Assembly (NCBI GenBank): GCA_016931965.1
Contig: JAFGDT010000110.1
Coordinates: 40,377 to 104,376, forward strand
Source of the DNA: a bacterium
Lineage (GTDB): Bacteria > Zhuqueibacterota > QNDG01 > DSAB01
Length of the DNA: 64,000 nucleotides
Reading direction: 5' to 3'
The notes below the pieces were generated by a model. That model ran no database searches and was not told where the DNA came from. It saw nothing but the letters and a program-made list of their open reading frames with translations. How positions within the stretch are numbered: the first letter of the stretch is position 1; each line of letters begins with the position of its first letter. Positions 8,049 through 42,001 of this stretch are shown one piece after another. Made by a program: the position numbers and the translations under genes.

Positions 8049-8146
8049 GCGCCACATAGAGCCGAAAACCCTGATGATGTCAGGGAAACCGTTTAACGGT
8101 AGTCCAGAATTTCGAGACGTAGGCTTGTCGGGCGCCTTTTTATTTT
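8049..8146 (+). ncRNA. candidate small RNA B (~100 nt)
   Basis: It contains the hairpin CCCTGA-TGATG-TCAGGG (8069-8085) and an ACCG...CGGT hairpin, and ends in GGCGCC plus TTTTTATTTT, which abuts the stop codon of the convergent DUF3800 gene. These could instead be terminator structures of that gene. Confidence 0.25.
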
Positions 8147-25066: not shown

Positions 25067-25510
25067 ATGTCCGAAAATAATCAAAAAAGCGAGGCCTTAT
25101 TTATGCAGCTGGTTCTGACATTTCAAATGGCTGCATGGCAGCAGATGGGAAAAATCAAGAATCCGTTAACCGATAAGGTGGAGAGAGATCTTTATCAGGC
25201 TCAATATTCAATCGATATACTGGAAATGCTGCGATCCAAAACAGCGGGTAATCTCAATGATAACGAAAAACAATTTTTGAATAAAATCCTCAGTGAACTT
25301 CAGTTGAATTATATCGATGAAATGAGCAAGGAGAAAAAAGAGCGGGAACAAAAGAAGGAAACCGTCAAAGAAGAGCAGGGTGCCGAAGTAAAAGAGGAAG
25401 AGAAAGAAACGGCAGTCAAGGAAAAAGATGAGAAGAATCAAGAAGAAAAACCCAAAAAATCACAGAAAACGGGCGGAGAAAAGAGCCGTCGGAAATCATC
25501 CAAGAAATAA
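25067..25510 (+). CDS. DUF1844-domain protein with a Lys/Glu-rich tail
   Basis: FMQLVLTFQMAAWQQMGKIKNPLTDKVERDLYQAQYSIDILEMLRSKTAGNLNDNEKQFLNKILSELQLNYID matches the DUF1844 core. Confidence 0.6.
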   Translation: MSENNQKSEALFMQLVLTFQMAAWQQMGKIKNPLTDKVERDLYQAQYSIDILEMLRSKTAGNLNDNEKQFLNKILSELQLNYIDEMSKEKKEREQKKETVKEEQGAEVKEEEKETAVKEKDEKNQEEKPKKSQKTGGEKSRRKSSKK

Positions 25511-25591
25511 TGATTTCGGTGAAGCGATTTATTTTGACTTGATTTGTTATTAATTAATAATTACTTTTTTAATTATCTAAAATGTAGTTCT

Positions 25592-26371
25592 ATGAATAGG
25601 GGCGACCAACAATCAAATCAAACCCACTGGGAACACTACTGGGAAAACAAAAAAGAGGTCGGTGAAATCTATTCAAATGGAGACAGACTGGTTGTTCAAA
25701 TTCTCCGATCAACCCAGGTCAAAAACAAGCGGATTTTAGAAGTGGGTGCGGGAACCGGGAGAGACGGTTTCCGATTGGCTGATGCAGGGGCTCGTGTTTT
25801 TTTTCTTGACTATGCCGATCGTTCTTTGGCATTCATAAAAAAACAGATCCAGGATAATGGGAAAAGCGCTTACCTGATCAGGGCGGATGCGCGGGCGCTG
25901 CCATTTCGATCCACCTGTTTTGATGTTGTGTTTCATCAAGGTCTACTCGAACACTTTCGGAATCCGGAGGTCTTGCTCCGAGAAAATCACCGTGTCCTCC
26001 AAAAAGACGGGATTTGTCTTGTCGATGTTCCACAGAAGTATCATATTTACACGGTGATCAAGCATGTATTGATGATTTTGCATGCGTGGTTTGCCGGTTG
26101 GGAAACGGAATTTTCGGTTCGGCGTCTGCGCCAACTTGTTCAGGATGCCGGATTCCGGATCGATGTATTCTATGGCGATTGGATGCGGCCCGGCCTGATC
26201 TATCGCATCGTCCGTGAACTGCTTTTACGTATCGGGATTCGGCTTCCCATGTATCCAAAGGGGTTTAAAATCAGTCAGTTGATCCGGACAAAGATACGGA
26301 TCCTGCTCAGTCGATATCCTCTGTTTTTGAACACATACTTGGATATCGGCGTGGTGGCGAAGAAATCATAA
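25592..26371 (+). CDS. class I SAM-dependent methyltransferase
   Basis: ILEVGAGTGRDG (motif I) and FDVVFHQGLLEHF (methyltransferase type 11-like). Confidence 0.8.
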   Translation: MNRGDQQSNQTHWEHYWENKKEVGEIYSNGDRLVVQILRSTQVKNKRILEVGAGTGRDGFRLADAGARVFFLDYADRSLAFIKKQIQDNGKSAYLIRADARALPFRSTCFDVVFHQGLLEHFRNPEVLLRENHRVLQKDGICLVDVPQKYHIYTVIKHVLMILHAWFAGWETEFSVRRLRQLVQDAGFRIDVFYGDWMRPGLIYRIVRELLLRIGIRLPMYPKGFKISQLIRTKIRILLSRYPLFLNTYLDIGVVAKKS

Positions 26372-26382
26372 GAAACGGAGCC

Positions 26383-27498
26383 ATGAAATACCGAATACTC
26401 TTAATCAACTGGCAGGATATTGCCAATCCGAAGGGAGGAGGGGCTGAAGTTCATGCACACCAAATCTTTAAACGGATTGCCGGAAAGGGACACGAAGTGA
26501 TTCAGTTCAGTTGCCTTTTCCCCAATGCTCCCAGAGAGGAGACCATCGATGGTATTCGGGTGATGCGTTGCGGCGGCCGAAAGGTGTTTAATTTCATGGT
26601 TCCTGCTGCCTATAAGAAGTTGAGCCGTCAAATGAAGCTTGACATTGTGATCGATGATATCAATAAAATACCCTTTTATACACCTCTTTTTGTCCGAGAG
26701 CCGCTTGTGGGGATTGTTCATCACCTTTTTGGCAAAAGCATCCTGCTGGAGACAAGCTGGATACAGGCGCACTATGTCCTGCTGGGTGAGCGACTCATTC
26801 CCCGGATCTATAAGCACAAAAGGCTTGTTGCCGTTTCCGAGAGTACGCGGAGGGAACTCAATCAGTGGGGAATCAGTAACAATAACATCGACATCGTCCT
26901 GAATGGTATTGATCCGCAACAGTATTATATTCTGCCTGGCATGAAAGATCCAAATCCGCTCATTGGATACTATGGTCGGCTGAAAAAATATAAATGCATT
27001 GATCATCTCATTCGTGCACTGGGTTTGGTTGTGCGACAGATCCCGAATGCACGTCTATTGATTGTAGGCATGGGAGATTATCAGAAAGAATTGGAAAGGT
27101 TGGTTGGAAAATTAAATCTGAATCCGTATGTCCGGTTTGTCAGTACAACACACCCACATGAAAGTGTCAAGTATCTCAATCAAATGTGGGTTGTTGCAAA
27201 TCCTTCTCCCAAGGAGGGATGGGGACTTACCGTCATCGAAGCCAATGCCTGCGGCACACCTGTTGTCGCCGCAGACTCTCAGGGGTTGCGTGATTCTGTC
27301 ATTGACGGTGAAACCGGTTTTTTGTATCCCTGGGGTGATATCGATCGGTTGGCGGATCGTATTGTTCAGATCATTTCGAACAAAAAGCTCCGTCAGAAAC
27401 TTGAGCGGGGAGCAGAAAACTGGGCAAAAAAATTCAGTTGGGATGAATCAGCATCAGAAATGATGAGCATTATTGAGCATGTTGTCAATGGTTCATGA
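26383..27498 (+). CDS. glycosyltransferase family 4 (GT-B)
   Basis: The GGAEVHAHQI N-terminal domain and EGWGLTVIEANACGTPVVAADSQGLRDSV (the EX7E region) are typical of GT4. Confidence 0.85.
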   Translation: MKYRILLINWQDIANPKGGGAEVHAHQIFKRIAGKGHEVIQFSCLFPNAPREETIDGIRVMRCGGRKVFNFMVPAAYKKLSRQMKLDIVIDDINKIPFYTPLFVREPLVGIVHHLFGKSILLETSWIQAHYVLLGERLIPRIYKHKRLVAVSESTRRELNQWGISNNNIDIVLNGIDPQQYYILPGMKDPNPLIGYYGRLKKYKCIDHLIRALGLVVRQIPNARLLIVGMGDYQKELERLVGKLNLNPYVRFVSTTHPHESVKYLNQMWVVANPSPKEGWGLTVIEANACGTPVVAADSQGLRDSVIDGETGFLYPWGDIDRLADRIVQIISNKKLRQKLERGAENWAKKFSWDESASEMMSIIEHVVNGS

Positions 27499-27514
27499 AT
27501 GGGAGGGTTCCTAT

Positions 27515-30409
27515 ATGGATAATCATAAAAGACTCAATGGGTTTATTGGTTTTGTGGTTACAGTCATTGCTTTTTTAACCTATTTGCGGACGATTGCACC
27601 CACAACTTCATTTTGGGATTGTGGAGAGTTTATTACCTGTTCCTATATTCTGGGAGTGCCCCATCCACCCGGTGCTCCGTTCTATCTGTTGATCGGAAGA
27701 ATTTTTTCGCTCATCCCTTTTGCGGCTGACATTGGTTTTCGCGTTAATCTTATTTCTGCAATCACAAGCACCCTGACGGTTCTCTTTACCTACTTAATTA
27801 TTGTCCGGTTGATCAACATCTGGCGCGGTGAGCCTAAAACCGCCACCGATCGTTTTCTGGTCTATGCGAGTGGTTTTATCGGGTCATTGGCTTTTGCTTT
27901 TACCGATTCACAGTGGTTCAATGCTGTCGAAGCGGAAGTCTATGCCATCAGTATGTTTTTTACTGCCGCTGTTGTCTGGCTGATTCTGGTCTGGATGGAG
28001 AAATCGGACCGTCCCTCGAGTGACCGGTATATTCTCATGATTTCATACTGTGTCGGTCTAGCCATCGCCATTCATTTGCTCAATATACTGGCATTGCCCT
28101 TTGTCTTTTTGATTATTTATTTTCGAAAATGCAAACCCGATTCAATTAAAGAATTTATTCTCCATGGTTTATTGGCCATGGGTTTGTTGGGGATTTCGGT
28201 ATTAATCGGACTGGTTTTCAAGGCACTGTTTGTGGGATTGATTGTCTTCCTGATCGCGCATGGCATTTACCGGCGGGGAAGAATCAGTGAACAAGCCAAG
28301 CGATATACCGAGCTGGCCTTCTTTCTCGGATGCGGAGTGACTATTTTTTACCTGATCTACCCTGGAATCATTCAAGGTGTCCCTTACATTGTGGAAAAAT
28401 GGTCATTCGGATTGTTGGCTTTGTTGGTCATTGGACTGGCGCTGGCGATTCTCTATGCTGTGATACAAAGGAGGAGGTGGACTTCTCTGGCACTGATCTC
28501 ACTTTTTCTCATCCTGTTGGGCTATTCGACATACAGTGTCATTTATATTCGATCAAGTCTGGATCCCCCTATAGATGAAAACAATCCGGATACACCTGAA
28601 AGACTGGTCAGTTATCTGAACCGTGAACAGTATGGAACATGGGGCACGCTGCCCAGGCGTTATCCCGGTATCCCTTTCGATATGATATTTGAGCAGCAAA
28701 ATCCGGGGCAGAGTTATGCGTTTCATGAGTTTGGAAAACAGATGGATTTTTTCTGGAACTTTCAAATGAAAAAATTGTATTGGCGATATTTTGGATGGCA
28801 ATTTATCGGAAAGGGAACAACCCTCGGCACTGATGATTACATTGCCGAGACCATTTCACTCTACGGACTATTTGGACTGCCTTTTCTTATCGGCTTATTT
28901 GGAATGGTGCATCACTTTTCACGCGACTGGAAACGGGCGTTGGCAGTTCTTGTTTTATTTGTCATGACGGGTATCGCTATTGTGGTCTATCTTAACCAGG
29001 AAGATCCCCAACCCAGGGAACGGGACTATGTCTACGTGGGTTCATTTTTCGCTTTTGCACTCTGGATCGGCACAGGAGTGGCCGGTTTGCTGGAATGGAT
29101 AGGCGATTTCCTTCGGGATAAGGCAAAAATCAGATCGGTTGTTCTGATCAGTACATCTGTGCTCTTACTTATTATTCTTCCGATCCGACTGTTTGCTTTT
29201 AATTTCGAGTCACACGACCGTACAGGGAATTATGTAGCCTACGATTATTCATACAACATCCTTCAGAGCTGTGAGCAAAACGCAATCGTTTTTACCAATG
29301 GTGACAACGACACATTTCCTCTCTGGTTTCTCCAGGAAGTGTATGGGATACGAAATGATGTTCGGGTCGTCAATCTGTCTCTTTTAAATACAGCCTGGTA
29401 TATCAAACAGCTGCGGGATCTGGAACCCAAAATTCCCATTCAGCTGAGTGACGCAGCCATCGAAGCATTGTATCCCCGGGCCTGGCAAACAAGGAAAATG
29501 TCTATCCCGGTTCCTGAAGACGTGATGCAGGAAGTGAAAGATAAGATGGAATCGCCCGGTGCAGAGCATGTTTCGGAAAATATTGTTTTTACGGTTGAAC
29601 CGACCTATTCAGTCGGTGGACAGGATGCTATTCTCGTGAAAGATCTGATGATCATCCGCATTCTGGCTGCAACGGAATGGCGACGTCCTGTCTATTTTGC
29701 CATGACTGTGTCCGAAGAGAACAAGATCGGATTGAACGATTATCTGCGCATGGATGGTCTGGCCTTTAAAGTGGTTCCCTATCCTGTTGAAAGTGTTTAC
29801 GCCGAAAGACTCAAAGTCAACCTACTTGAAAAATACCTTTATCGGGGGCTTGACAATTCAACTGTTTATTTCAACACAAACACGGTCAAGCTTCTTCAAA
29901 ACTATCGGTCGACATTTTTGAGCCTCGTTGAATACTATCTGAATCAGGGTCAGAAAGAAGATGCGCAGGTGGTCTTGAAATTTATGTCTGAGAAAATGCC
30001 TCCGCAAGTGATTCCTTACAACGACGAACGCCATGCTTTGGCCATCACGAATTTTTATCAGCGGGCAGATCTCCCCATTGATGGTGAAGAACAACTTAAT
30101 TATGTGATTCGAGGCCGTCAGATGAATCGTGAAGAGCGTTTGACGATAGCCGGTTACTACGCTCAATTTCAATATTGGGATCGGGCTGAAGCGGTTTTCA
30201 GAGATCTGATTAAAGAAAATCCGAATGATGCAGAGGCTTATTCGATACTGGTTGCTATTTTAAAAATGTCCCAGCAATATGATAAGGCTGTTATGGTTTT
30301 AGAAGACTGGGTTGGAAGATATCCGAGGGACAGCATCGCGCTGAGCGAGCTGGAGACCCTGCGAAAAATAGCGATTTCAGATTCGAATGTTTTCGATTTG
30401 AATCCATGA
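27515..30409 (+). CDS. DUF2723 polytopic membrane protein (GT-C-like putative glycosyltransferase) with C-terminal TPR repeats
   Basis: TIAPTTSFWDCGEFITCSYILGVPHPPGAPFY is the DUF2723 hallmark. There are more than 10 predicted TM helices and a C-terminal TPR-like region. Confidence 0.75.
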   Translation: MDNHKRLNGFIGFVVTVIAFLTYLRTIAPTTSFWDCGEFITCSYILGVPHPPGAPFYLLIGRIFSLIPFAADIGFRVNLISAITSTLTVLFTYLIIVRLINIWRGEPKTATDRFLVYASGFIGSLAFAFTDSQWFNAVEAEVYAISMFFTAAVVWLILVWMEKSDRPSSDRYILMISYCVGLAIAIHLLNILALPFVFLIIYFRKCKPDSIKEFILHGLLAMGLLGISVLIGLVFKALFVGLIVFLIAHGIYRRGRISEQAKRYTELAFFLGCGVTIFYLIYPGIIQGVPYIVEKWSFGLLALLVIGLALAILYAVIQRRRWTSLALISLFLILLGYSTYSVIYIRSSLDPPIDENNPDTPERLVSYLNREQYGTWGTLPRRYPGIPFDMIFEQQNPGQSYAFHEFGKQMDFFWNFQMKKLYWRYFGWQFIGKGTTLGTDDYIAETISLYGLFGLPFLIGLFGMVHHFSRDWKRALAVLVLFVMTGIAIVVYLNQEDPQPRERDYVYVGSFFAFALWIGTGVAGLLEWIGDFLRDKAKIRSVVLISTSVLLLIILPIRLFAFNFESHDRTGNYVAYDYSYNILQSCEQNAIVFTNGDNDTFPLWFLQEVYGIRNDVRVVNLSLLNTAWYIKQLRDLEPKIPIQLSDAAIEALYPRAWQTRKMSIPVPEDVMQEVKDKMESPGAEHVSENIVFTVEPTYSVGGQDAILVKDLMIIRILAATEWRRPVYFAMTVSEENKIGLNDYLRMDGLAFKVVPYPVESVYAERLKVNLLEKYLYRGLDNSTVYFNTNTVKLLQNYRSTFLSLVEYYLNQGQKEDAQVVLKFMSEKMPPQVIPYNDERHALAITNFYQRADLPIDGEEQLNYVIRGRQMNREERLTIAGYYAQFQYWDRAEAVFRDLIKENPNDAEAYSILVAILKMSQQYDKAVMVLEDWVGRYPRDSIALSELETLRKIAISDSNVFDLNP

Positions 30410-31377
30410 TCAGCAGAGAGAATGGTTTGATTCGAAGGGTTCTTTTTCAGGCATTCAAAATTATCATCAGCGGAATCCTGATTGGGTATCTGCTCCGTCG
30501 CATCGGTATGGGAAATGTGATCGAGCATCTCCAGTCTGCCGATGTGTCCTGGTTGTGTGGAGCGACGGTTCTTTTTACTGCGAGTCTTTTTATAGGGAGT
30601 TGTCAATGGTGGATCCTTCTTAAAAGTGAAGGCATTGAAATAAACTGGAAAAAGACAGTTTCATTCTATTTTGTCGGTCTTTTTTTTAATAATTTTTTAA
30701 TCAGTGGCCTGGGAGGGGATTTATTCCGTATGATTGACATTAAACGCTATTCAAAGAATGGAACCAGTGCTGTTTCCTCTGTGTTTTTGGATCGGTTTAT
30801 GGGATTATTTGTTCTTTCGGGGATGGCGGTTTTCGCAATACCCTGGATTTTAATACGGGGTGGTAGTTTATTTCAATTGTGGTTCCCTCTTGTATTCCTG
30901 ACCGCGGGATGGATATTGATCCTTCTCTTTTTATTCAACAGCGCATTTGCCGGACTTTTAAAGCGGTTGCTTCAGAAAATCACTCCCAAAAAGATCAGCG
31001 CCCACGTTCAAGAGATCTATCAAAAAATTTGGCAATTCGGGCGCAAAAGACACCTGTTGATTCAAGTGGGTATTCTGTCGATCATCATTCAGAGCGCCAG
31101 AATCATGACCCATTATTGTCTGGGCCGATCGTTGGGGATTATGTTATCACCCCTCTATTTTTTTCTGTTGATTCCCCTCATTGCGGTGATGGCCAGTTTA
31201 CCGGTCAGTGTAGGGGGACTTGGGATCCGTGAACAAAGTGGCGTCGTCCTTTTCGGCTTATTGGGTGTCCATACGATTCAGGCTTTTACCATGGAAGCCC
31301 TTGCTTATCTTTTTGCTGTTGTTTTAAGTCTTCCCGGGGGATTGATTTTTATGGTTCGGAAAAAAGTGGGACGGTGA
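30406..31377 (+). CDS. flippase-like (UPF0104 / lysyl-PG-synthase TM-domain) membrane protein
   Basis: It is polytopic with VGLFFNNFLISGLGGDLFR and SLPVSVGGLGIREQ, typical of PF03706. Confidence 0.65.
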   Translation: MISRENGLIRRVLFQAFKIIISGILIGYLLRRIGMGNVIEHLQSADVSWLCGATVLFTASLFIGSCQWWILLKSEGIEINWKKTVSFYFVGLFFNNFLISGLGGDLFRMIDIKRYSKNGTSAVSSVFLDRFMGLFVLSGMAVFAIPWILIRGGSLFQLWFPLVFLTAGWILILLFLFNSAFAGLLKRLLQKITPKKISAHVQEIYQKIWQFGRKRHLLIQVGILSIIIQSARIMTHYCLGRSLGIMLSPLYFFLLIPLIAVMASLPVSVGGLGIREQSGVVLFGLLGVHTIQAFTMEALAYLFAVVLSLPGGLIFMVRKKVGR

Positions 31378-31415
31378 TGCATGACTGGAAAAAGGAAGAA
31401 AATAGGAGTAGAACA

Positions 31416-32441
31416 ATGAAGTCAATTCGATTATTTATGGTTGTTTCAACTGTTTTTGTGATCGGTTCTTGCAGTTTGAAGCCAAGAAGCTGGTGGACAG
31501 AGGGTGTCATTGGCGTGATAATGGATCAAGAAGAATGGGAAGTGACACAGATACCATTAGAGAGGGTATACGAGCGTGTTGTACGTACTCCTCAAATTGA
31601 AACGATGTTTACAATCAGATATGTGCCTGACTCCGATTTCGAGCGATACACAAGCTATCAGTATCTCATCTTGGCAGCTACTTTGGAATCGCATGGGAGG
31701 GTCGGTCAAATTGTCGAGAGGGTTGTTTCCGATCCTGAAATTCGTCAGGGGGTGGAGGAGGGGGAGTATTATGTCTTTACCCAACGCGACCAGTGGGCGA
31801 AAGATCAATTGATGATCATTCTCGTCGCCAAGGATTTGATCACCCTTCGCGAAAAGATCGAGACCAATGAAGAGTTTCTCTACGCTATTTTTGATGCTGA
31901 TTGGAATGAACAACTCGAGGAAGACATGTTTGCAAGAGGTGAGCAGAAGGATGTCGAAGAAGAGCTCATGGCTATTTATGGTTGGTCTATGCGGATTCAA
32001 CGGGATTATTTTCTTGTTCAGGAACTGCCGGAGGAAGGATTTATCTGGTTTCGTCGAATGTATCCCGAACGCTGGATATTTGTACGCTGGATTGATGGGG
32101 GGGATACGACGTTGTTGGATCCCTATTGGATTGTTAAGGAAAGGAACCGTATTGGTGCTGAGTATTATGGCGGGGATCGGGTAAGAAGCGACCAGTTTTT
32201 ATTTTCTCGCAGGTCCACCTTTTTGGGTCGGAAGGCACAGATCACATCCGGTCTTTGGGAGAATGACGGGAAGGTGGCCGGCGGACCTTTTATCAATTAC
32301 ACCTTCCACGATTCTCTTTCCCGCCGGGTTTATATGATTGATGTGGCTGTTTTTGCTCCGGCCAGGGATAAAATGCCTTATCTTCGTCGTCTTGATGTCC
32401 TGGCTCATACTTTTCACACGGTCTTTGATATGGGAAGGTGA
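31416..32441 (+). CDS. hypothetical lipoprotein (possibly DUF4837-like)
   Basis: MKSIRLFMVVSTVFVIGSC is a lipoprotein signal and AGGAG lies 7 nt upstream. The family assignment is weak. Confidence 0.45.
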   Translation: MKSIRLFMVVSTVFVIGSCSLKPRSWWTEGVIGVIMDQEEWEVTQIPLERVYERVVRTPQIETMFTIRYVPDSDFERYTSYQYLILAATLESHGRVGQIVERVVSDPEIRQGVEEGEYYVFTQRDQWAKDQLMIILVAKDLITLREKIETNEEFLYAIFDADWNEQLEEDMFARGEQKDVEEELMAIYGWSMRIQRDYFLVQELPEEGFIWFRRMYPERWIFVRWIDGGDTTLLDPYWIVKERNRIGAEYYGGDRVRSDQFLFSRRSTFLGRKAQITSGLWENDGKVAGGPFINYTFHDSLSRRVYMIDVAVFAPARDKMPYLRRLDVLAHTFHTVFDMGR

Positions 32442-32503
32442 GCTTGTATAGAGGATGAATCTATCATAACACTGGATCAAAGTTTTTATTAAAAGAGGGA
32501 TAC

Positions 32504-32983
32504 TTGAATATGGCTTTCAATAAGGATGTCAAAGTGGCTGTTTTGATGGGGAGTCAGTCAGATGAGACTGTCATGCAGCATTGTGTTCAACTGCTTCAAT
32601 ATTTTGGCATTCCCCATGAGGTGCATGTGATGTCCGCACATCGTCATCCAGACAAAGTAACAGTGTTTGCTCAATCCATTGATGAGAAAGATATTCATGT
32701 TGTTATTGCGGGTGCGGGTATGGCTGCACATCTTCCCGGTGTATTGGCTTCCCAGACCACAGTACCGGTCATTGGTGTACCTCTGGAGGGATCCTCTTTG
32801 GGAGGGCAGGATGCGCTTTTTTCCATGGTGCAAATGCCTTCGGGAATTCCTGTGGCCACGATGGCTATCGGAAAAACAGGGGCACAAAATGCGGCTATTT
32901 TGGCCGCAGAGATTTTAGCGCTTCGGGATAATGCATTAAAAAAGAAATTGATCGCATTCAGAAAACAGGGGAGTAAAATATAG
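32504..32983 (+). CDS. purE: 5-(carboxyamino)imidazole ribonucleotide mutase
   Basis: VAVLMGSQSD...VIAGAGMAAHLPGVLASQTTVPVIGVP is the canonical PurE sequence. Confidence 0.9.
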   Translation: MNMAFNKDVKVAVLMGSQSDETVMQHCVQLLQYFGIPHEVHVMSAHRHPDKVTVFAQSIDEKDIHVVIAGAGMAAHLPGVLASQTTVPVIGVPLEGSSLGGQDALFSMVQMPSGIPVATMAIGKTGAQNAAILAAEILALRDNALKKKLIAFRKQGSKI

Positions 32984-33025
32984 GGTGTATTGTTCGTACT
33001 ATAAATATCAATCGAGGAATTTGTC

Positions 33026-35098
33026 ATGAATATAGGTTGGGTAAGTAAAATATTGGAGGATTCACAATACAACCTATTAATCTTTAAATATGAAGAAATA
33101 GAAGCCCTTGAAAAAAGGATTATTGTTAAGAATGATAAGCCCTATGTCAATTGTATTATTCGTGAGAAGGAAGTCCATCTGAAACCCGAGGAAATCGTCC
33201 GTCAGCTTTATACTGCTAAGCTCATCAAAGATTACGGTTATCCCAGAAAACGGATACGATTCGAGCATCCTGTCCAGTTTGGGCGGGAAACAAAATCTGC
33301 AGATATCGTCGTGTTTGACAAAGATAGACCAACCGTTGAATATATTATTGTCGAGGTCAAGAAACCGAAGCTCAAGGATGGCAAGGAACAACTGAGATCA
33401 TATTGTAATGCTACCGGAGCACCCATTGGTGTATGGTCAAACGGAGGGCAGATTTCCCATTATAATCGTAAAGATCCGAATTTTTTCGAGGACATCACCG
33501 ACATCCCTAAAGCAGATCAGACTTTTGAAGACATTCTGAAAGAACGTTTTACGCTGCGCGACTTGATCATTCGCGATAAAATCCCCAATGAAGGCAAATC
33601 TCTTAAGACCATTATTACCGAAATGGAAGATGAGGTTCTCGCAAATGCCGGTGTTGATGTTTTTGAAGAGGTTTTCAAACTTATATTTGCTAAACTATAT
33701 GACGAACAAAAAAGTCAACAGGACAAGAGCGTTATCAATTATTTTCTGCGTAATAAGGAACTGCCGCAGGTATCTGAACGACAAGCTTTTTATAGTGCCA
33801 AAAACAACGATACGTTTGATTCGATCAAGGAAGCGCTGCAAAAAATAGACGATTCCGGTTTCAGAGTTCTTGAATTCCGTAACACCGGCCAATCCGAGGG
33901 CGAGTTAAAGAAGAAGATACAGAAACTTTTTGACGATGCTAAAAATAAATGGCCGGGCGTTTTCCCTGATGAAAGTAAAATTGATCTTTCACCTTCGCAC
34001 CTTTCCGTTTGTATTTCAAGCCTTCAGGATGTCAAACTTTTCAATTCCAATCTGCAGGTTATAGACGAAGCTTTTGAATATCTGGTAAACAAGTCCTCTA
34101 AGGGAGAAAAGGGCCAATATTTCACTCCTCGGCATGTGATCGATATGTGCGTCAAGATGCTTAATCCCAAGCGGGGTGAATATATGATCGACACCGCCGC
34201 CGGTTCCTGTGGATTCACTGTTCATACGATCTTTCACCGTACAGGGCACTTATTTGAAAATACAGAAATTTCTCAGGAAGAAAAAGAGGATGTCCTCAAA
34301 GTTTTCGGCATTGATTTTGATGAAAAGGTCGTGCGTGTGGCTCGGACACTCAACTTGATCGCAGGCGATGGTGAAACAAACATTTTGCATCTTAATACAC
34401 TGGATTATGACCGCTGGGATGAAATCGTTAATAACCCGGATTGGCGGGACACTTACGGAAGTGGTTTTAGACGCTTGGAAGCCCTCAAAAAAGAGACTAA
34501 TGGCCATAAAGAATTTCTCTTTGATATTTTGATGGCCAATCCACCATTTGCAGGGGATATTAAAGAATCCCGCATCATCCATAAATATGAGCTCGGCTAT
34601 AACAAGAAGAACAAGCCAAAGTCAAAGGTCGGCAGGGATATTCTCTTTATCGAACGAAACCTTGATTTCATCAAGCCGGGTGGCAGGATGGCAATCGTAT
34701 TGCCTCAAGGGTGATTCAACAATACATCCGATAAGGACATCCGGGAATTTGTTGCGGGTAAGGCGCGCATTTTGGCAGTTGTCGGCCTGCAGGGCAACAC
34801 CTTTAAACCCCACACAGGCACCAAAACAAGTGTCTTATTCCTGCAAAAATGGGACAAAAAACTTTGCCCAAAGAAAGATGATTATCCTATCTTTTTTGCG
34901 GTATCAGAGAAATCAGGCAAGGATAATTCAGGCGAATACGTCTACGTTAAAAATGGTGAGGGCAAGCCAAAGCTGGATTACTACGGTCATTTTATCGTTG
35001 ATCACGATCTGCACAATCAAGGCGGCGCATTACCGGATGGTATTGCCGAAGCATTCATTGACTGGGCGAAGAAAGAGAAATTGAGCTTTTGGAAATAA
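33026..35098 (+). pseudogene. hsdM: Type I RM methyltransferase subunit HsdM interrupted by an in-frame TGA at 34712-34714
   Basis: It has motif I DTAAGSCGFTV and motif IV ILMANPPFAG. The frame reads ...AIVLPQG*FNNTSDKDIREFVAGKARILAVVGLQGNTF..., so the C-terminal ~128 aa continue in the same frame after the stop. TGA is used as a genuine stop elsewhere, for example at the mutS end. Confidence 0.6.
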
Positions 35099-35101
35099 CA
35101 T

Positions 35102-36529
35102 ATGCAAATATCTTGTGTTAATTACAAGAAATTAGATCAAGGGACACGGCTTGATGCAGAGTATTACAAGCCAGAGTTCTTAGAAGTCGAAAAAATACTA
35201 TGGAAAGCTAACTGTAAACTGTTAGACGATGTGAGCAAGTCGATCAAAAGTTTTGGAGCATATGCATTGTGCAACAAGATGGTTTTAGTTGCTAAAGGGA
35301 TTCCCTTTATACGATGTAAGGATATCAAAAAAGGTTTTGTTGATTTTTCAGAAGTACTTTTCATTGATGAGGCAACACACTGCCTTCTTTCAAAATCAGC
35401 GATTACTCCTAATATCGTTATGCTCACTATGTCTGGGTCAGTAGGTAATTCTGCAATTGCTGATCCAACTTGGAAATATCCAATAAATTCAAATCAAGAC
35501 ATTGCGAAGATAGAAACGGATGATTTAATAAATCCATACTATTTAACTGTTTTTTTCAATACAAAATATGGGAAAAGCCAAACAGAAAGATTGCCCATTG
35601 GTAGTATTCAACAACATATTTTTTTATGGCAGTTGAAAGGACTTCTAATTTTTACACCATCATCCAAATTACAAGGATTAATAGCTGGCATTTATTGCAA
35701 AGTTATTAAATTATTAAAAGATAGCGATTTCTTTTATCAAAAAGCAGAGCAAATCCTACTTTTCGAGCTTGGCCTTCTGAACTGGAAGCCAAAGCGAAGA
35801 CTTTCATTTGTCAAGAATTTCTCCGAAACGCAGACCGGCGGACGCATTGACGCCGAATACTTCCAACCGATGTATGAGGAAATCGTCGACAAGATATCAA
35901 AACGATTTAATGCTAAGCCGATTGGTGAATATAATTTTATCGATGTCACAACAGGACAATATTCGGATAATTATACTGAAAAGTTGTCTGGTTTGCCATA
36001 TATAAGAGGCACAGATTTACTTTCTGGTACTGTGAAAATGGACAATCTTGTTTATATTGCAAAAGAGCACCAAGAAAAAAGCAAGCTTGCGAGAGAAGGC
36101 GATGTTGTTGTCACACGGGTAGGAACTATTGGTTTATCAGCAAGGATTCCAAAAGAATGTGAAGGCGGTACTATTAGTGATAATCTCATTAGACTAAGAA
36201 TTAAAGATGATGGATTGGACACCTATTTTCTTGCTTTATTTCTTGATAGTATCTTGGGCAGAAGTTTAATGATACGATACAGCAGAGGAAGTGTTCAGCA
36301 ACGTTTAAATCAGGAAACTTTAAAGGAAATCATCATCCCGATTTTAGACAGAAATATTCAAGCAAACATTGCTTTGGAAGTTAAAGATTCTCATAAGCTA
36401 AGGGAACAGTCAAGGTGTCTGTTAGACATTGCCAAGCGTGGCGTTGAGATGGCGATCGAGAAGAGTGAAAAAGACGCTCAAAATTGGATCGATGAAGAAT
36501 TGAGGAAGTTAAACTTCCGTGTGGATTAG
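35102..36529 (+). CDS. hsdS: Type I RM specificity subunit HsdS (two TRDs)
   Basis: The 475-aa protein has two target-recognition domains separated by a conserved central region and a C-terminal coiled coil (QNWIDEELRKL). Confidence 0.85.
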   Translation: MQISCVNYKKLDQGTRLDAEYYKPEFLEVEKILWKANCKLLDDVSKSIKSFGAYALCNKMVLVAKGIPFIRCKDIKKGFVDFSEVLFIDEATHCLLSKSAITPNIVMLTMSGSVGNSAIADPTWKYPINSNQDIAKIETDDLINPYYLTVFFNTKYGKSQTERLPIGSIQQHIFLWQLKGLLIFTPSSKLQGLIAGIYCKVIKLLKDSDFFYQKAEQILLFELGLLNWKPKRRLSFVKNFSETQTGGRIDAEYFQPMYEEIVDKISKRFNAKPIGEYNFIDVTTGQYSDNYTEKLSGLPYIRGTDLLSGTVKMDNLVYIAKEHQEKSKLAREGDVVVTRVGTIGLSARIPKECEGGTISDNLIRLRIKDDGLDTYFLALFLDSILGRSLMIRYSRGSVQQRLNQETLKEIIIPILDRNIQANIALEVKDSHKLREQSRCLLDIAKRGVEMAIEKSEKDAQNWIDEELRKLNFRVD

Positions 36530-36540
36530 AGAGGCAATCG

Positions 36541-37590
36541 ATGCCATTTAACCCGAAATATATCATTACCCCGAAGATCAATAAGGCGCTCATTGAGATC
36601 GAGCGGGTGCGGGGATTTCTGGATGCGATAAAGCTTAAGGATGACTGGATTTCCGATATGCAGAAAAAAGCGCTTATCCTTGAGTCGCACCACTCTACGC
36701 ATATTGAAGGTACAGCAATATCACTTTCTCAGGCACAGGATATTTTAGCGGGTAAAAAGGTTAAAGGCATCAGTCGTGACGATGAAAAAGAGCTTTTGAA
36801 TTACAAGAAGGCGATGGGTTTTATCTCAAAATATCTTGGCAAGGATGATCCGGTTTCGGAAGACATTATCCAAGAGCTTCACAGGATTCTGGTTAAAGGC
36901 GTCCGGGGCGAGAATGCAGGTCCGGGCAATTACCGAAAGATACAAAACTACGTCGTCAATTCCCGGACTCGTGAGGTCGTTTATACTCCGCCTCCCGCTT
37001 TAGAGGTCCCACATCTTATGCAAGAGTTTACGGAATGGATTAACAAGGCCGAGGATGTGTCGCCTATCCTTGTTGCCGCTATTGCCCAATTTCAGTTCGT
37101 GCATATTCATCCATTTATTGACGGTAACGGCAGGATGGCCCGGCTTCTTTCAACGCTTATTCTCTATAAGACAGGTTATGATTTTAAGCGGTTATTTACA
37201 ATCTCTGAATACTACGACAAAGACCGCTCAGCGTATTATGACGCTATTCAGTCAGTGCGTAAGAACAAGATGGATATGACCGGATGGCTTGAATATTTTG
37301 TTGATGGACTTCGTTCTCAGATGAAAGAGATACAGAATAAAGGAAAAGAGATCATTAAGAAAGATACAGCTTTGCAGAAAATAAAGAAAGCAGGATTTAA
37401 CGTTCGTCAGGAAAAAGCGATTAAGTTCATTTTACAGAATGGAAAAATAACAGTAAATGATTATCAGGCAGTTGCCTCATGTATTCGCAGGACAGCTCAG
37501 CGGGATTTGGATGATTTGCTTGAAAAGAAGGTCATAAAAGCGGTCGCCAAAAGCCCTACCGATCCGACAAAACATTATGTTTTACTGTGA
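36541..37590 (+). CDS. Fic/DOC family protein (putative AMPylator) with a C-terminal winged-helix domain
   Basis: HPFIDGNGRMARLL is the canonical HPFx[DE]GNGR Fic motif. The gene starts 11 nt after the hsdS stop. Confidence 0.9.
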   Translation: MPFNPKYIITPKINKALIEIERVRGFLDAIKLKDDWISDMQKKALILESHHSTHIEGTAISLSQAQDILAGKKVKGISRDDEKELLNYKKAMGFISKYLGKDDPVSEDIIQELHRILVKGVRGENAGPGNYRKIQNYVVNSRTREVVYTPPPALEVPHLMQEFTEWINKAEDVSPILVAAIAQFQFVHIHPFIDGNGRMARLLSTLILYKTGYDFKRLFTISEYYDKDRSAYYDAIQSVRKNKMDMTGWLEYFVDGLRSQMKEIQNKGKEIIKKDTALQKIKKAGFNVRQEKAIKFILQNGKITVNDYQAVASCIRRTAQRDLDDLLEKKVIKAVAKSPTDPTKHYVLL

Positions 37591-37628
37591 CAAGCTACTG
37601 TGACATACTGTGACATTTTACTGTGACA
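37584..37628 (+). repeat. four direct copies of ACTGTGACA at 10-13 bp spacing
   Basis: Copies lie at 37584-37592, 37597-37605, 37607-37615 and 37620-37628. The first overlaps the Fic stop codon and the fourth begins the hsdS stub. Confidence 0.8.
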
Positions 37629-37671
37629 AGGCGAAGAACCTAAAAACTGGATTGATGAGGAATTAAAATAA
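37622..37671 (+). pseudogene. orphan duplicate of the hsdS 3' terminus
   Basis: ...GAACCTAAAAACTGGATTGATGAGGAATTAAAATAA reads EPKNWIDEELK*. The real hsdS end (36470-36531) reads DAQNWIDEELRKLNFRVD*. Confidence 0.6.
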
Positions 37672-37697
37672 TTAGGAATTAAACAACTATCAACTGT

Positions 37698-38426
37698 ATG
37701 AATAACAATACCAAAATCCTGGTCATCATTCCAACTTATGATGAGGTGGAAAATATTCAGAAACTGATTCCCCTGGTTCTGGTTCAGGATCCACGTATTG
37801 GTGTACTGGTCATTGATGACGGTTCACCCGACGGTACGGCAGAGCAGGTTGAGAAGATGATGGCTAAAACAGATCATCGGTTGCATCTCATCAAACGTCC
37901 CCGTAAGATGGGTTTGGGAACGGCTTATGTGGATGGATTTAAGTATGCATTGAAAGAGCGGTATGATCTTATCTTCGAAATGGATGCCGATTTTTCCCAC
38001 GATCCAGATGCCATCCCCGAATTTTTAAAAACCATCGAAGATTACGATCTGGTGGTGGGTAGTCGATATATTCGGGGCGTCAATGTGATTAACTGGCCGA
38101 TGTCTCGTCTAATTCTTTCCTGGTTAGCGAATTTTTATACACGTGTGGTGACGGGACTTCCCCTTAAAGATGCTACCAGCGGATATAAGTGTTTTAAAAG
38201 AAATGTACTGGAGGCGATTGATCTGGATAATGTCCATTCGGATGGGTATGCATTTCAAATCGAGATCGACTTTAAAGTGTGGCAGAAAGGATTCCGTCTG
38301 AAAGAAATTCCCATCGTTTTTATCGATCGATATATCGGCATTTCTAAAATGAATCGCAAGATTATCCGGGAAGCCGTGTGGATGGTGTGGAAACTGCGCT
38401 TGTTGAGTCTATTTGGAAAATTATAA
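37698..38426 (+). CDS. GT2 polyprenol-phosphate mannose/glucose synthase (Dpm1/PpmS-like)
   Basis: It contains IIPTYDEVENI, VIDDGSPDGT, a DAD motif and GSRYI, the typical Dpm1-like GT2 motifs. Confidence 0.8.
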   Translation: MNNNTKILVIIPTYDEVENIQKLIPLVLVQDPRIGVLVIDDGSPDGTAEQVEKMMAKTDHRLHLIKRPRKMGLGTAYVDGFKYALKERYDLIFEMDADFSHDPDAIPEFLKTIEDYDLVVGSRYIRGVNVINWPMSRLILSWLANFYTRVVTGLPLKDATSGYKCFKRNVLEAIDLDNVHSDGYAFQIEIDFKVWQKGFRLKEIPIVFIDRYIGISKMNRKIIREAVWMVWKLRLLSLFGKL

Positions 38427-38429
38427 CCG

Positions 38430-40538
38430 ATGGTTACCCTTTCAATTATTGTTGTTAATTATAATGTAAAGCCATTTCTGGAACGGGCATTGCTCTCCAT
38501 ACAAAAAGCATTGGAAGGAATTTCTTCCGAAATATTTGTTGTGGATAACGCTTCTGGAGATGGCAGTGTGACCATGATTAAGGAGCGCTTTCCGGATGTT
38601 CATCTCATCTCAAATGTTGAGAATGCTGGTTTTGCCCGAGCGAATAATCAAGCTCTGCGCTGCGCAAAAGGGAAAATGATCTGTCTGATTAATCCAGATA
38701 CTTTTGTTCAGGAAGACACATTCAAAGTCTGTCTCGATTATTTGGAGAACCATCCATCGGTAGGTGCTGTCGGCTGTAAAATTGTGAATCCTGATGGGAC
38801 CCTGCAGCTTTCCTGCAGAAGGAGCATACCTACCCCCTGGGTTGCTTTTGCCAAAGTGGCGTTTTTAAGTACGTTATTTCCGAAAAGCAAACGATTCGGT
38901 CGCTACAATCTCACCTATCTGAATCCTGATGAAATAACGGAAGTGGAAGCCCTTTCTGGTTCTTTCATGGTCGTGCGGCAAGAGGTGATTGATCAAATCG
39001 GTCTTTTAGATGAAGCCTTCTTTCTCTATGGCGAGGATCTGGATTGGTGTTACCGCATGCAGCAAAAAGGCTGGAAGATCGTCTATCTGCCGGAAACCCA
39101 GATTATCCATTATAAAGGTCGAAGTACAAGAGAAGCTTCTTTTGATACCCAAAGCATCTTTTATGAAGCCATGCGACTCTTTGTCAAGAAGCATTTTGGA
39201 AAAGGGCGGTCGTTTTTACCACGATGGTTTTTGATGTTAGGAATCTGGATTCGGAGATCCATTTCGTTCCTTGTGCGATTTTTCAGCCGTTTGGTTGTGC
39301 CCTTTATTGATTTGGCGTTTCTCCAGTTCAGTTTAATCCTTGCCATCTGGATACGGTTCGGTGATCTTCAATTGTGGGATTACTATCGCGTCGTCAACAT
39401 CGTTTACACGACCATATGGATGATCTGTCTCTATGCGATGGGTTTGTACAAAAAAAGAATCTGTCCTGCATCAAAAGCGATGGAAGGCATTATGATCGGC
39501 TTTCTTCTCAACACGACATGGACTTTCTTTTTTAAAGAGTATGCTTTTTCACGGCAGGTGGTTCTGATTGCGGGTCTGTTGAATGGATTGTGCATAAGCA
39601 TGTGGCGATGGATTTTACGGGCGGCCGTAAAAGGTTATCGTATCCCTTTTTTGGGTCAGCTTGGCATTCATTTTTTCAAGAAGCGTATTCTTATCGTAGC
39701 CGGAGATCAAACAGGACAGCAAATACTCAAACAATTGGGTGAACGAAACGATTCAAGATTTGAAATTGTTGGATTTTTGGGATTATGCGAAAAAGAGACG
39801 CTCCAATCAGAAAACGGAAAAGCGCCGTTTTTAGGCACTTTAAAAGATCTGGATCGTATCGTCTCGGCGCATCGGATTCGGGAGGTGATTTTTTCACAGG
39901 AAGCAGTCAGCACTGAGACTCTGTTGCATGTTATGACCGCTGGAAGATCCATGGATATTCATTTCAAAATGTTCCCAAGAAATCTGGATATCATCACAGG
40001 CAAAACTTCTCTTGAGTATTTGGAAGATGTTCCTCTGCTCGATTTGGAATTTAAAATCTACTCCGGGCCCAATCAACTTTTGAAACGCATCATGGATATA
40101 TCGATAACCTGTTTACTGCTCCCCGTTCTATTGCCGATTTTGGCTTATCTATGGATTCATCCGTCGTTTCGATTTAAAAAGGCATTGATATCGGATGGAA
40201 TGGGTCACGCGCTCTCTGTACGACAGCTCTTTAAGAACGATCGTAAAGTGGATCACTGGCTGCGCAATATTCCTCTTTATTCAGAGGTTCTAAGGGGGCG
40301 TATGAGTTTGGTTGGATCAGAAATGATGGACTATTCAGATTCAGACACTGGAAGAGGCGTCAAACCCGGATTAACAGGATTGGTCCAGATCAATGCTGAC
40401 AGGAAGCTGCCGGAAGGGGATAAAAAGAAATACAATTTATATTATATAAGAAATTATACACCTCTTTTGGATGCAAAAATATTGTTGAGAAGTCTTTTAT
40501 CATTTAAACGACAGACAGGCAATATTTTGGGGAGATAA
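38430..40538 (+). CDS. fusion of a GT2 glycosyltransferase with a polyprenyl glycosylphosphotransferase-like (WbaP-type) protein
   Basis: An N-terminal GT2 domain ([19 protein letters not shown]) is followed by a membrane region, a Rossmann-like segment, and a C-terminal Bac_transf-like domain ending [12 protein letters not shown]. Several of the canonical Bac_transf residues are diverged. Confidence 0.7.
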
Positions 40539-40542
40539 ATAC

Positions 40543-41499
40543 ATGGCAGAATTTGTGTTGGATTTTGAAAAACCCATTGTCGAGCTGGAAAAGAAGATAG
40601 CTGAAATGAAAAATTATACAGCTGAAGAAAATGTGGAACTCGTCGATGAGATCAAACGGATGGAATCCCGGCTCGAAAAATTGATGATAGATACCTATTC
40701 AAAGCTCACCCGCTGGCAGCGCGTACAATTGGCACGGCATCCCAATCGGCCCTATACCCTTGATTATATAGAGAGAATTTTTACCGATTTTGTTGAGCTT
40801 CACGGAGATCGGCTCTTTTCGGATGATCCCGCTCTGGTCAGCGGATTGGCAAAACTGGATGGTCTTCCCATTATGGTGTTGGGGCAGCAGAAGGGACGAA
40901 CAACCAAAGAGAAGTTGTATCGAAATTTCGGCATGCTTAATCCCGAGGGGTATCGCAAGGCATTGCGGTTGATGAAAATGGCTGTGAAATTTCATCGGCC
41001 GATTGTTGTATTTATCGATACACCGGGAGCTTACCCCGGTCTCGGTGCGGAAGAGAGAGGTCAAGGAGAAGCCATAGCCAGAAATCTTTTTGAGATGTCC
41101 CACCTGGCTGTGCCTATTCTTGTTCTTATCATTGGAGAAGGCGCTTCAGGTGGTGCTTTGGGAATCGGAGTCGGGGATCGCATTCTCATGATGGAAAACG
41201 GATGGTATTCCGTCATCTCTCCGGAGGGGTGTGCTGCCATTCTCTGGAGGGATAACGCCAAGGCCAATATGGCCGCCGAAGCGCTCAAATTGGCTGCATC
41301 CGATTTGATTGAACTGGGAGTCATTGACGGTATTATCAAAGAGCCGATCGGCGGTGCACATCGCGATGTGGATGGTGCCGCGAAGATATTAAAGAAGACA
41401 ATCATCGATGAACTGAATAAACTTAGCGCTATCAGTACGGAAGATCTCGTTAAAAATCGGCTGGAAAAGTACGCGAAAATGGGTTTTTTTGATGAATGA
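40543..41499 (+). CDS. accA: acetyl-CoA carboxylase carboxyltransferase subunit alpha
   Basis: It contains [20 protein letters not shown] and [13 protein letters not shown], and is conserved across its full length. Confidence 0.95.
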
Positions 41500-41911: not shown

Positions 41912-42001
41912 GGATAATGGTTACATCCACAAAAGTGGATGTGGGCCAAGCATGCTTGCTTTTGGAGACGGATCATGGCAATCTTTAGAATGATACGGTA
42001 C

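Follow-up and report, generated by a model that had tools for sequence, protein, structure and literature searches.

The closest characterized relative, by family, of the enzyme considered here is human TMEM260. Larsen et al. (2023) traced the DUF2723 model to this protein and showed it to be an endoplasmic reticulum protein O-mannosyltransferase for IPT domains. Its fold is predicted to be GT-C, Asp52 in the first luminal loop is critical, and its tetratricopeptide repeats (TPRs) face the lumen; bacterial relatives appear in that study just as "distant homologs in bacteria" (PMC10214176). Another precedent is the archaeal neighborhood of genes for a UPF0104 protein, a PMT/STT3-like protein (PMT, protein O-mannosyltransferase), and an AglD-like GT2, in which Makarova, Galperin, and Koonin (2015) predicted UPF0104 to be the flippase (PMC5898192). 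Here we describe a locus of an uncultured KSB1-like bacterium, within a 64,000-nucleotide stretch of contig JAFGDT010000110.1 (positions 40,377 to 104,376 of the forward strand, hereafter the window), where a TMEM260-like (DUF2723) gene lies near genes for a UPF0104 membrane protein and a Dpm1-like GT2. We consider it on balance probable that this region encodes an extracytoplasmic glycosylation pathway that uses a lipid-linked donor and is built around the TMEM260-family GT-C enzyme, probably acting on proteins. An initial annotation of the window had proposed an envelope glycosylation cluster of this general kind while calling the function of DUF2723 unknown, a statement outdated by the 2023 demonstration that human TMEM260 is a protein O-mannosyltransferase (PMC10214176).

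Family, fold, and architecture all place the central protein (27515-30409, + strand; 964-978 aa) in the TMEM260-like family. On the 978-aa open reading frame (ORF), the hidden Markov model (HMM) PF11028, whose current Pfam name is "Protein O-mannosyl-transferase TMEM260-like," scores 216.3 bits against a cut-off of 24.2 (E 3.6e-64, residues 49-221), TPR_14/TPR_19 repeats are found at the C terminus, and PF28495 (TMEM260_2) is recorded for an identical database protein (P0001). NCBI names the identical protein "DUF2723 domain-containing protein [bacterium]"; its homologs number more than 7,000, many of them from candidate division KSB1, and some are already named "protein O-mannosyl-transferase family." An AlphaFold2 model based on 59 homologs (pLDDT 86.6, pTM 0.85) consists of about 13 transmembrane (TM) helices (residues 5-567), a periplasmic alpha/beta domain (approximately 590-760) bearing the invariant motif T-N-G-D-N-D-T-F-P-L-W, and a C-terminal, non-cytoplasmic helical/TPR array (approximately 788-960). 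The closest structures to this model are Pmt4 (score 20.0), Pmt2 (19.8), STT3B and PglB (18.4 each), and AftB (16.0), followed by ALG12 (15.5), ALG9 (14.8), Pmt1 (14.4), AglB (14.1), and ArnT (13.1), with AftA, DPY19, and AftD coming after ArnT and Foldseek in agreement. Thus the protein has the GT-C fold on which the earlier proposal of a GT-C transferase depended, and its nearest structures are protein-modifying enzymes. In the invariant segment W34-D35-x-G37-E38-F39, Asp35 and Glu38, located 9-12 residues past TM1, do not vary in the 59 homologs. GT-C enzymes have their catalytic acid at this place, and the catalytic Asp of both PMT1 (D77) and human TMEM260 (D52) lies directly after TM1 (PMC10214176). 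Asp35 is therefore a candidate catalytic residue, with position as the basis for equating it with D52.

We compared the window with two sets of loci, numbered with the prefix L. The first, centered on the GT-C gene, comprises 23 genome loci and several protein-database contigs annotated by tblastn, HMMs, and Pfam; the second, centered on the GT2 gene, comprises 80 loci (50-69% identity) found in metagenomes by scanning with eight aligned orthologs, and the counts of TMEM260-like and fusion genes given for this set refer to the 37 loci of at least 8 kb.

All the genes listed in the initial annotation were recovered by ORF calls, Pfam, and NCBIfam at the positions given there, each on the + strand, as are all genes between 21.5 and 44.6 kb. 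The block containing the GT-C gene begins with DUF1844 (25067-25510; PF08899, E 8.5e-23), a small cytoplasmic protein with a Lys/Glu-rich tail, whose gene is also directly 5' of TMEM260-like genes in L002-L008, L013, L024, L028, and L063; this linkage extends to Marinimicrobia-type loci and is independent of recG. It is followed by a cytoplasmic class I S-adenosylmethionine (SAM)-dependent methyltransferase lacking TM segments (25592-26371; Pfam Methyltransf_11, E 2.6e-19, and Methyltransf_25), orthologs of which are directly 5' of GT4 in L020, L024, L025, L027, and L063, and by a cytoplasmic, retaining GT4 of GT-B fold (26383-27498; Glycos_transf_1, E 3e-39, and Glyco_transf_4), for which NCBIfam offers MshA and BshA as closest models, with every score under the cut-off. 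The methyltransferase and GT4 genes are separated by 11 nt and the GT4 and GT-C genes by 16 nt, the start of the UPF0104 gene overlaps the GT-C stop by 4 nt, and the remaining gaps as far as the lipoprotein gene are within 11-40 nt. A promoter and terminator scan of 24.8-42 kb gave counts equal to shuffled expectation and was uninformative on operon limits.

Downstream of the GT-C gene, the polytopic UPF0104/LPG_synthase_TM protein (30406-31377; PF03706, E 2.7e-39) has about eight TM segments and belongs to the MprF flippase-domain family of predicted lipid flippases; it scores 58.7 bits with TIGR00374 ("flippase-like domain"; cut-off 43.2). Pfam finds no gene for a GtrA-family or SMR-type polyprenol-phosphate-sugar flippase in 25-41 kb, leaving UPF0104/PF03706 as the sole candidate. 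The last member of the block is a DUF4837 lipoprotein (31416-32441; PF16125, E 1e-38) with a signal peptide and the lipobox MKSIRLFMVVSTVFVIGSC, in which Cys19 is kept in at least 90% of 47 homologs. Its AlphaFold2 model (pLDDT 90.3) has a C-terminal half that Foldseek matches to PsbP, Mog1, LpqN, and DcrB (E approximately 1e-5 to 3e-3), and a sequence search against the PDB gave no match. As judged from this model, which shows no catalytic signature, DUF4837 is a candidate periplasmic accessory or ligand- or partner-binding lipoprotein.

The enzyme that would supply the donor is a 242-aa GT2 (37698-38426) with no TM segment. Its best PDB match is the dolichol monophosphate mannose synthase of Pyrococcus furiosus (5mlz; E 2.6e-30, residues 5-233), the DXD-type motif EMDAD(F/L)SH is invariant in eight orthologs, and NCBI and JGI both name it a polyprenol-phosphate-mannose (PPM) or Dol-P-Man synthase, the NCBI name of the exact protein being "polyprenol monophosphomannose synthase." These matches bear out the earlier description of a Dpm1/PpmS-like GT2, with a GT-A domain nearest to Dol-P-Man synthases. 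The top NCBIfam models, PpgS, AglJ (second-best), PgfS (third-best), and ArnC, all describe polyprenol-phosphate-sugar synthases, and the protein scores 47-62 bits with these equivalogs against cut-offs of 325-529, too far below for sugar specificity to be read from them. From sequence, we predict a polyprenol-phosphate-sugar synthase whose family is secure and whose sugar is not. The mannose or arabinose suggested by the initial annotation is not established: a gene for an NAD-dependent epimerase/dehydratase is immediately 5' of the GT2 gene in L025, L027, L028, L033, and L063, so that mannose should not be taken for granted. A search across the 64-kb window for the epimerase, PfkB, and YfhO-like genes seen in relatives found none.

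The adjacent gene (38430-40538) encodes a 702-aa fusion that Pfam and NCBIfam resolve into GT2, CoA_binding_3, and Bac_transf domains, with an apparently intact GT2 domain (residues 1-270) joined to a WbaP-type scaffold of membrane, CoA_binding_3, and phosphoglycosyl transferase (PGT) segments. This agrees with the domain make-up given earlier for a GT2/WbaP-like fusion, and the WbaP-like half proves to have lost its catalytic Asp-Glu dyad. The PF02397 match covers only profile positions 90-175 of 179, and the HMMER alignment to PglC (8e37) starts just past the dyad, with LRNIP where PglC has LDELP. In all five aligned sequences (window, L001, L002, L024, and L025), the dyad is absent and the preceding segment is shortened, while residues 575-702 or thereabouts retain the large-PGT architecture. 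Judged by these residues, the WbaP-like half is a dead (pseudo-)PGT and thus not an initiating PGT; it may instead give the GT2 domain a scaffold, either in the membrane or for binding polyprenol phosphate.

Our data establish family assignments, the GT-C fold, gene order, its conservation across lineages, and the lost PGT dyad. Taken together, these genes suggest a pathway in which donor, sugar, flipping, and acceptor are all predictions, as is any cooperation of the upstream block with the GT2 genes downstream. At the cytoplasmic face, the soluble Dpm1-like GT2 would attach a sugar, taken from a nucleotide sugar, to polyprenol phosphate. The GT4, the SAM methyltransferase, and the GT2-pseudoPGT fusion would probably elaborate or diversify the lipid-linked glycan, and because they are cytoplasmic, they could act only before flipping. 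The lipid-linked sugar would then cross to the periplasmic leaflet, for which UPF0104 is the candidate flippase, and the first periplasmic loop of the GT-C protein (W-D35-x-G-E38-F) would transfer it to an envelope acceptor, with DUF4837 as a putative periplasmic accessory. The acceptor would most probably be Ser/Thr of secreted or membrane proteins, chosen by the alpha/beta domain and the TPR array; protein Ser/Thr is favored by the only characterized family member, the nearest structures, and the TPR array itself.

Gene neighborhoods in other lineages show which parts of this arrangement are held together. L024, a 76% identical relative, has the gene order of the window apart from the interval between purE and GT2. 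The order in L025/L026 (56% identical) is methyltransferase, GT4, GT-C, UPF0104, DUF4837, purE, permease, PfkB, epimerase, GT2, fusion, and accA, and in the KSB1 locus L027 it is recG, methyltransferase, GT4, GT-C, UPF0104, DUF4837, purE, epimerase, and GT2; the series from the methyltransferase through GT4, GT-C, UPF0104, and purE to GT2, with DUF4837 and the epimerase as variable members, is kept in L024, L025/26, L027, L033, and L063. Three loci are rearranged yet linked: L001 (GT-C, GT2', UPF0104, DUF4837, purE, GT2, fusion, and accA, with a purE-GT2 gap of 36 nt), and L002 and L028, which lack UPF0104 and have DUF1844, GT-C, GT2', Methyltransf_23, and DUF4837, and further on epimerase, GT2, fusion, and accA. 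Krumholzibacteriia-type loci L020 and L059 have the order methyltransferase, GT4, UPF0104, and TMEM260-like gene, with a 59% identical GT2 about 9 kb downstream; in L020 (Krumholzibacteriia), a second GT-C gene and further glycosyltransferase genes come before this GT2. Finally, L097 has a distant, TPR-bearing TMEM260-like member of 1141 aa only 1 kb from its GT2. The GT2 and GT-C genes are within 10 kb of each other in KSB1-like and Krumholzibacteriia-type loci, namely in the window, L001, L002, L020, L024, L025, L027, L028, L033, L059, L063, and L097. The methyltransferase, GT4, TMEM260-like, UPF0104, and DUF4837 genes form a tight block conserved across phyla.

The protein designated GT2' is a generic elongating GT2 by its PDB matches and shares about 30% identity with the fusion's GT2 domain. 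Marinimicrobia-type loci consist only of DUF1844, GT-C, and GT2'; a role for GT2' there as the polyprenol-phosphate-sugar synthase was rejected, since its matches are to generic elongating enzymes and not to Dpm1 or ArnC. In the sister lineages where GT2' and Methyltransf_23 replace GT4 and the methyltransferase, the exchange looks like glycan diversification. Such swapping, as in glycan-diversifying loci, would also fit a scheme of en bloc transfer, in which the GT2 starts a short oligosaccharide on polyprenol monophosphate, the fusion and GT4 extend it, the methyltransferase caps it, and the GT-C enzyme moves it whole after flipping. The Haloferax Agl pathway resembles such a scheme. It would give every cytoplasmic enzyme of the cluster a role and is compatible with the absence of an active initiating PGT, with the rank of AglJ among models for the GT2, and with the presence of STT3B, PglB, and AglB among the best structural matches of the GT-C protein. 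Nevertheless, the nearest characterized enzymes, TMEM260 by family and the PMTs by fold, transfer one mannose only, Marinimicrobia-type loci have only one extra GT2, and nothing observed points directly to an oligosaccharide, so we judge en bloc transfer highly unlikely.

The initial annotation predicted linkage of DUF2723, PpmS-like GT2, and UPF0104 genes; they do co-occur in several lineages, and the linkage to the GT2 does not hold throughout. Of the TMEM260-like loci with a 10-kb flank, about half lack a Dpm1-like GT2 (L003-L006, L010, L012, L013, L016, and L019 have none within 10 kb of the GT-C gene). Several observations accordingly weigh against the pathway that we favor. In loci from Marinimicrobia, Ignavibacteria, Rhodothermales, and Balneolaceae, no Dpm1-like GT2 was found at 10 kb or less from the TMEM260-like gene, and the last three of these groups have no partner genes at all within that distance. 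Among the 37 long GT2-centered loci, a TMEM260-like gene is present in only four (L033, L059, L063, and L097) and many have no GT-C gene at all; the tightest partners of the GT2 in this set are the GT2-pseudoPGT fusion, directly 3' in at least seven, and accA, which comes next in most. accA likewise follows the fusion in L001, L002, L024, L025, L028, and several metagenome loci. L020 is weakened as clean independent proof of coupling between TMEM260-like protein and GT2, because the immediate upstream neighbor of its GT2 is a YfhO-like protein of 830 aa (L020 19235-21727). With recG, purE, and accA interleaved, co-localization in KSB1-like lineages may in part be inherited synteny. In addition, the known or proposed substrates of UPF0104 proteins are glycerolipids (MprF and GpgF) and not polyprenol-phosphate sugars, a GT4 and a methyltransferase have no place in a simple scheme of monosaccharide transfer, and our literature search for experiments on a bacterial TMEM260-like protein found none.

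Some of these observations would be expected if two separate systems were present, with the upstream operon taking its donor from elsewhere, the Dpm1-like GT2, fusion, and accA forming another envelope or lipid unit, and their proximity being synteny inherited within a KSB1-like radiation. The conserved order of the interleaved housekeeping genes is consistent with this, as are the differing intervening genes (permease, PfkB, epimerase, or restriction-modification genes), the wide occurrence of the GT2 with no TMEM260-like gene nearby, human-gut contigs included, and the TMEM260-like genes of Marinimicrobia and other FCB lineages that have no such GT2 within 10 kb. We nevertheless find separate systems distinctly unlikely, because the upstream block has been rearranged in three ways without the proximity being lost, and the linkage reappears both in a different phylum-level lineage (L020 and L059) and with a distant TMEM260-like gene (L097). 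Orthologs of the GT2 also adjoin GT-C proteins of other families in nine loci, which argues that this GT2 is habitually a GT-C partner.

In these nine loci (L035, L038, L053, L054, L061, L070, L071, L075, and L089), the gene immediately 5' of the orthologous GT2 encodes a YfhO-type polytopic protein (PF09586, a GT-C family) of 820-960 aa, and the nine proteins are mutually homologous; the 830-aa neighbor of the GT2 in L020, which carried no annotation, falls into this group too. UPF0104 and GT4 precede the YfhO-like gene in four of the nine, and another GT2 is often also found upstream with them. The set of GT4, UPF0104, GT-C, and Dpm1-like GT2 thus recurs with different GT-C families, which supports the general logic of the pathway and indicates that the GT2 is not dedicated to TMEM260-like enzymes.

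The presence of GT4 and UPF0104 beside a GT-C gene in both TMEM260-type and YfhO-type cassettes can also be read in terms of a glycolipid: GT4, perhaps with the methyltransferase, would make a glycolipid at the cytoplasmic face that UPF0104 flips, as has been proposed for P. aeruginosa GpgS/GpgF and C. difficile HexSDF, and the GT-C enzyme would use the product of the Dpm1-like GT2 to decorate this lipid or another envelope glycan and not proteins. YfhO-type enzymes glycosylate teichoic acids, which counts toward this reading, and the GT4 of the window has weak matches to models of MGlcDAG synthase and GlcNAc-PG synthase. Moreover, GpgS is a GT4 of equal length (1116 nt) encoded in one operon with the UPF0104 protein GpgF (PMC12713373), and fusions of UPF0104 with GT-B glycosyltransferases and with SAM methyltransferases occur in several phyla (preprint 10.1101/2022.03.11.483950). 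Set against this, the GT4 of the window scores 43 bits where the GlcN_PG_synth cut-off is 480, the operon has no deacetylase (a YdjC-like gene is 9.5 kb downstream), L001 has UPF0104 with a GT2 in place of GT4, and L002 and L028 lack UPF0104. The GT-C protein, furthermore, has protein-modifying enzymes as its nearest structural neighbors and a TPR array as in TMTC and TMEM260. A glycolipid pathway is on this evidence unlikely.

If glycosylation of proteins by the TMEM260-like enzyme is the correct reading for this locus, a broader one can be put forward as a tentative possibility that we do not expect to hold in full. In diderm bacteria of the FCB group (KSB1, Marinimicrobia, Latescibacterota, Ignavibacteria, Rhodothermales, and others), TMEM260-like enzymes may be protein O-glycosyltransferases of PMT type and the prokaryotic relatives of the metazoan IPT-domain O-mannosyltransferase. 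They may function in a modular cassette of GT4, UPF0104, GT-C, and Dpm1-like GT2 in which the GT-C component is interchangeable (TMEM260-like or YfhO-like) and cytoplasmic glycosyltransferases and methyltransferases diversify the glycan.

The two halves of the cluster are separated by genes that the initial annotation regarded as an insertion of purE, a Type I restriction-modification (RM) system, and fic. The inserted part does not include purE (32504-32983; class I N5-CAIR mutase, TIGR01162, 185.5 bits against a cut-off of 149.6), which is in the same place in L001, L002, L024, L025, L027, L033, and L063 and is therefore ancestral. Across divergent lineages, purE sits between the GT-C/UPF0104/DUF4837 block and the epimerase/GT2 block for no apparent functional reason; both it and accA are housekeeping genes carried along in the conserved array. 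The next three genes, which have a GC content of 0.36-0.43 compared with about 0.45 in the flanks, are missing from the corresponding site in relatives, and to this extent the idea of an insertion stands. They encode a Type I-like N6-adenine DNA methyltransferase with an N-terminal HSDR_N_2 nuclease-like domain (33026-35099; Pfam; PADLOC MTase_I, 770 bits), an HsdS-like specificity subunit (35102-36529; Pfam Methylase_S; PADLOC Specificity_I, E 2e-51), and a SoFic-like Fic-domain protein (36541-37590; Pfam Fic; PADLOC SoFic, 232 bits).

Nor do these genes amount to a complete Type I system: ORF calls reveal no hsdR between purE and GT2, and only the methylase and specificity genes are present. 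The methylase is interrupted by an in-frame TGA at 34712-34714 (reading LPQG*FNNTS in one frame), a finding that led us to reject a frameshift, and it is probably a pseudogene. The corresponding interval of L024 holds only a 49-aa ORF and a RhuM+Fic gene, the Fic gene of the window not being orthologous to the one there. The 49-aa ORF (L024 15528-15677) joins roughly the first 17 codons of the same methylase gene to roughly its last 32, which implies that the system was present in the common ancestor of both lineages and has been decaying independently in each. With different cargo at this site in other relatives (permease, PfkB, or epimerase), the purE-GT2 gap is a site of variation within an array that is conserved elsewhere, and the methylase, specificity, and Fic genes are a decaying defense islet inserted into it. 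A search for direct or inverted repeats flanking the islet gave short chance matches only and no att-like repeats. We also considered a methylation-associated defense system (MADS) on account of MAD2/mad5 matches and rejected it, these being below cut-off and weaker than plain Type I methylase and specificity models. An independently assembled Logan contig with an identical GT2 (L110, SRR13394437_297923) begins 99 bp upstream, at the Fic/GT2 junction (window position approximately 37599), which is consistent with strain-level variation at the islet boundary.

A second defense-type patch (8140-13200, - strand, 33-36% GC) lies next to mutS and contains a Type IIG enzyme (10276-13200; HSDR_N, N6_Mtase/Eco57I/MmeI, and TaqI_C) and two DUF3800 genes (8140-8865 and 9164-9919). 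Between mutS and valS is a gene for a KamA-family radical SAM aminomutase, extended at its N terminus by about 190 aa (16290-18122), whereas in L024 mutS is directly followed by valS.

At the edges of the cluster, Pfam and NCBIfam place DUF4139 and then recG 5' of DUF1844; following the fusion are accA (40543-41499; NCBIfam accA, 488 bits), the conserved downstream edge of the array, a YbgC-type thioesterase, a YdjC-like carbohydrate deacetylase, and a transglutaminase. The YdjC-like gene (41939-42955), 3' of accA and the thioesterase and missing from this position in L024, could be relevant to an N-acetyl-sugar lipid, a linkage that is not demonstrated. Two transglutaminase-like envelope proteins are encoded at 43064-44578 and 49262-51244, one with Ig-like_KY and one with DUF3857/DUF3858, and L025 likewise has a DUF3857 transglutaminase near the cluster.

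If our favored reading is correct, the locus would provide a bacterial setting for the TMEM260 family. Work on this family has so far been confined to animals, in which its loss leads to SHDRA, a syndrome of heart and kidney. The range of PMT-like protein O-glycosylation would moreover grow beyond Actinobacteria and Firmicutes to include large uncultured diderm phyla, and were the broader FCB-group reading to hold as well, this would be a widespread and uncharacterized protein glycosylation route in those phyla. Our analysis supplies a concrete gene set (GT-C, UPF0104, Dpm1-like GT2, GT4, and methyltransferase) and suggests that GT-C pathways of at least two families use UPF0104 proteins for flipping. 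The gain is incremental pending biochemistry.

How far the locus departs from described systems can be seen from its components. The window protein shares with human TMEM260 the PF11028 and PF28495 domains, the GT-C fold, an acidic residue right after TM1, and non-cytoplasmic TPRs, but it is bacterial and longer (964 aa compared with 707 aa), its donor would be a polyprenol-phosphate sugar and not Dol-P-Man, and its gene is in an operon with those for GT4, methyltransferase, UPF0104, and a lipoprotein. The PMT systems (yeast Pmt1/2/4 and actinobacterial Pmt with Ppm1) follow the same plan, with a Dpm1/Ppm1-type GT2 making the lipid-linked sugar and a GT-C enzyme moving it to protein; their enzymes, however, belong to GT39, and the PMT and PMT_2 Pfam models are unmatched by the window GT-C protein, which in place of a MIR domain has a TPR array and an alpha/beta domain of its own and whose host has a Gram-negative-type envelope.

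A polyprenol-phosphate-sugar synthase of the GT2 class, a flippase, and a GT-C enzyme also make up the three-component systems GtrA/GtrB/GtrC, ArnC/ArnEF/ArnT, and CsbB/GtcA/YfhO (Kelly et al. 2024, PMC11127046). In the window, by contrast, the candidate flippase is UPF0104 and not of GtrA or SMR type, the GT2 is without a membrane anchor and its gene stands apart from that of the GT-C, the GT-C is of the TMEM260 family, and genes for a GT4, a methyltransferase, and a lipoprotein are added. The streptococcal GtrB/PgtC2 and Pgf systems (PMC12041528, PMC5856776) likewise combine a GT2 lipid-sugar synthase with polytopic transferases, which modify Ser/Thr of envelope proteins, and they have an epimerase beside the GT2, as do L025, L027, and L028; PgfS is, as noted, among the best models for the window GT2. 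The PgfS score is nonetheless 55 bits against a cut-off of 500, the streptococcal GT-C enzymes are of another family, and the window has no epimerase.

Operons of the GpgSDF/HexSDF type (P. aeruginosa GpgS/GpgF and C. difficile HexSDF; PMC12713373) similarly unite a GT4 of about 371 aa with a UPF0104 predicted flippase. Of their hallmarks, a GpgS-type GT4, a deacetylase, and UPF0104, the window operon has UPF0104 only: it lacks the deacetylase, its GT4 is not orthologous (43 compared with 480 bits), and a GT-C gene is placed between GT4 and UPF0104. The archaeal neighborhood with which we began (PMC5898192) offers the same predicted cooperation of UPF0104, GT-C, and GT2, although it is archaeal, has a GT-C of another family, and is itself a prediction only. 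Thus, the annotations of the single genes are already known from public databases and the logic of the pathway from the three-component systems and the archaeal neighborhood, while what differs here is the combination of a TMEM260-like GT-C, a UPF0104 flippase candidate, a soluble and non-adjacent GT2, and the additional GT4, methyltransferase, lipoprotein, and dead PGT fusion.

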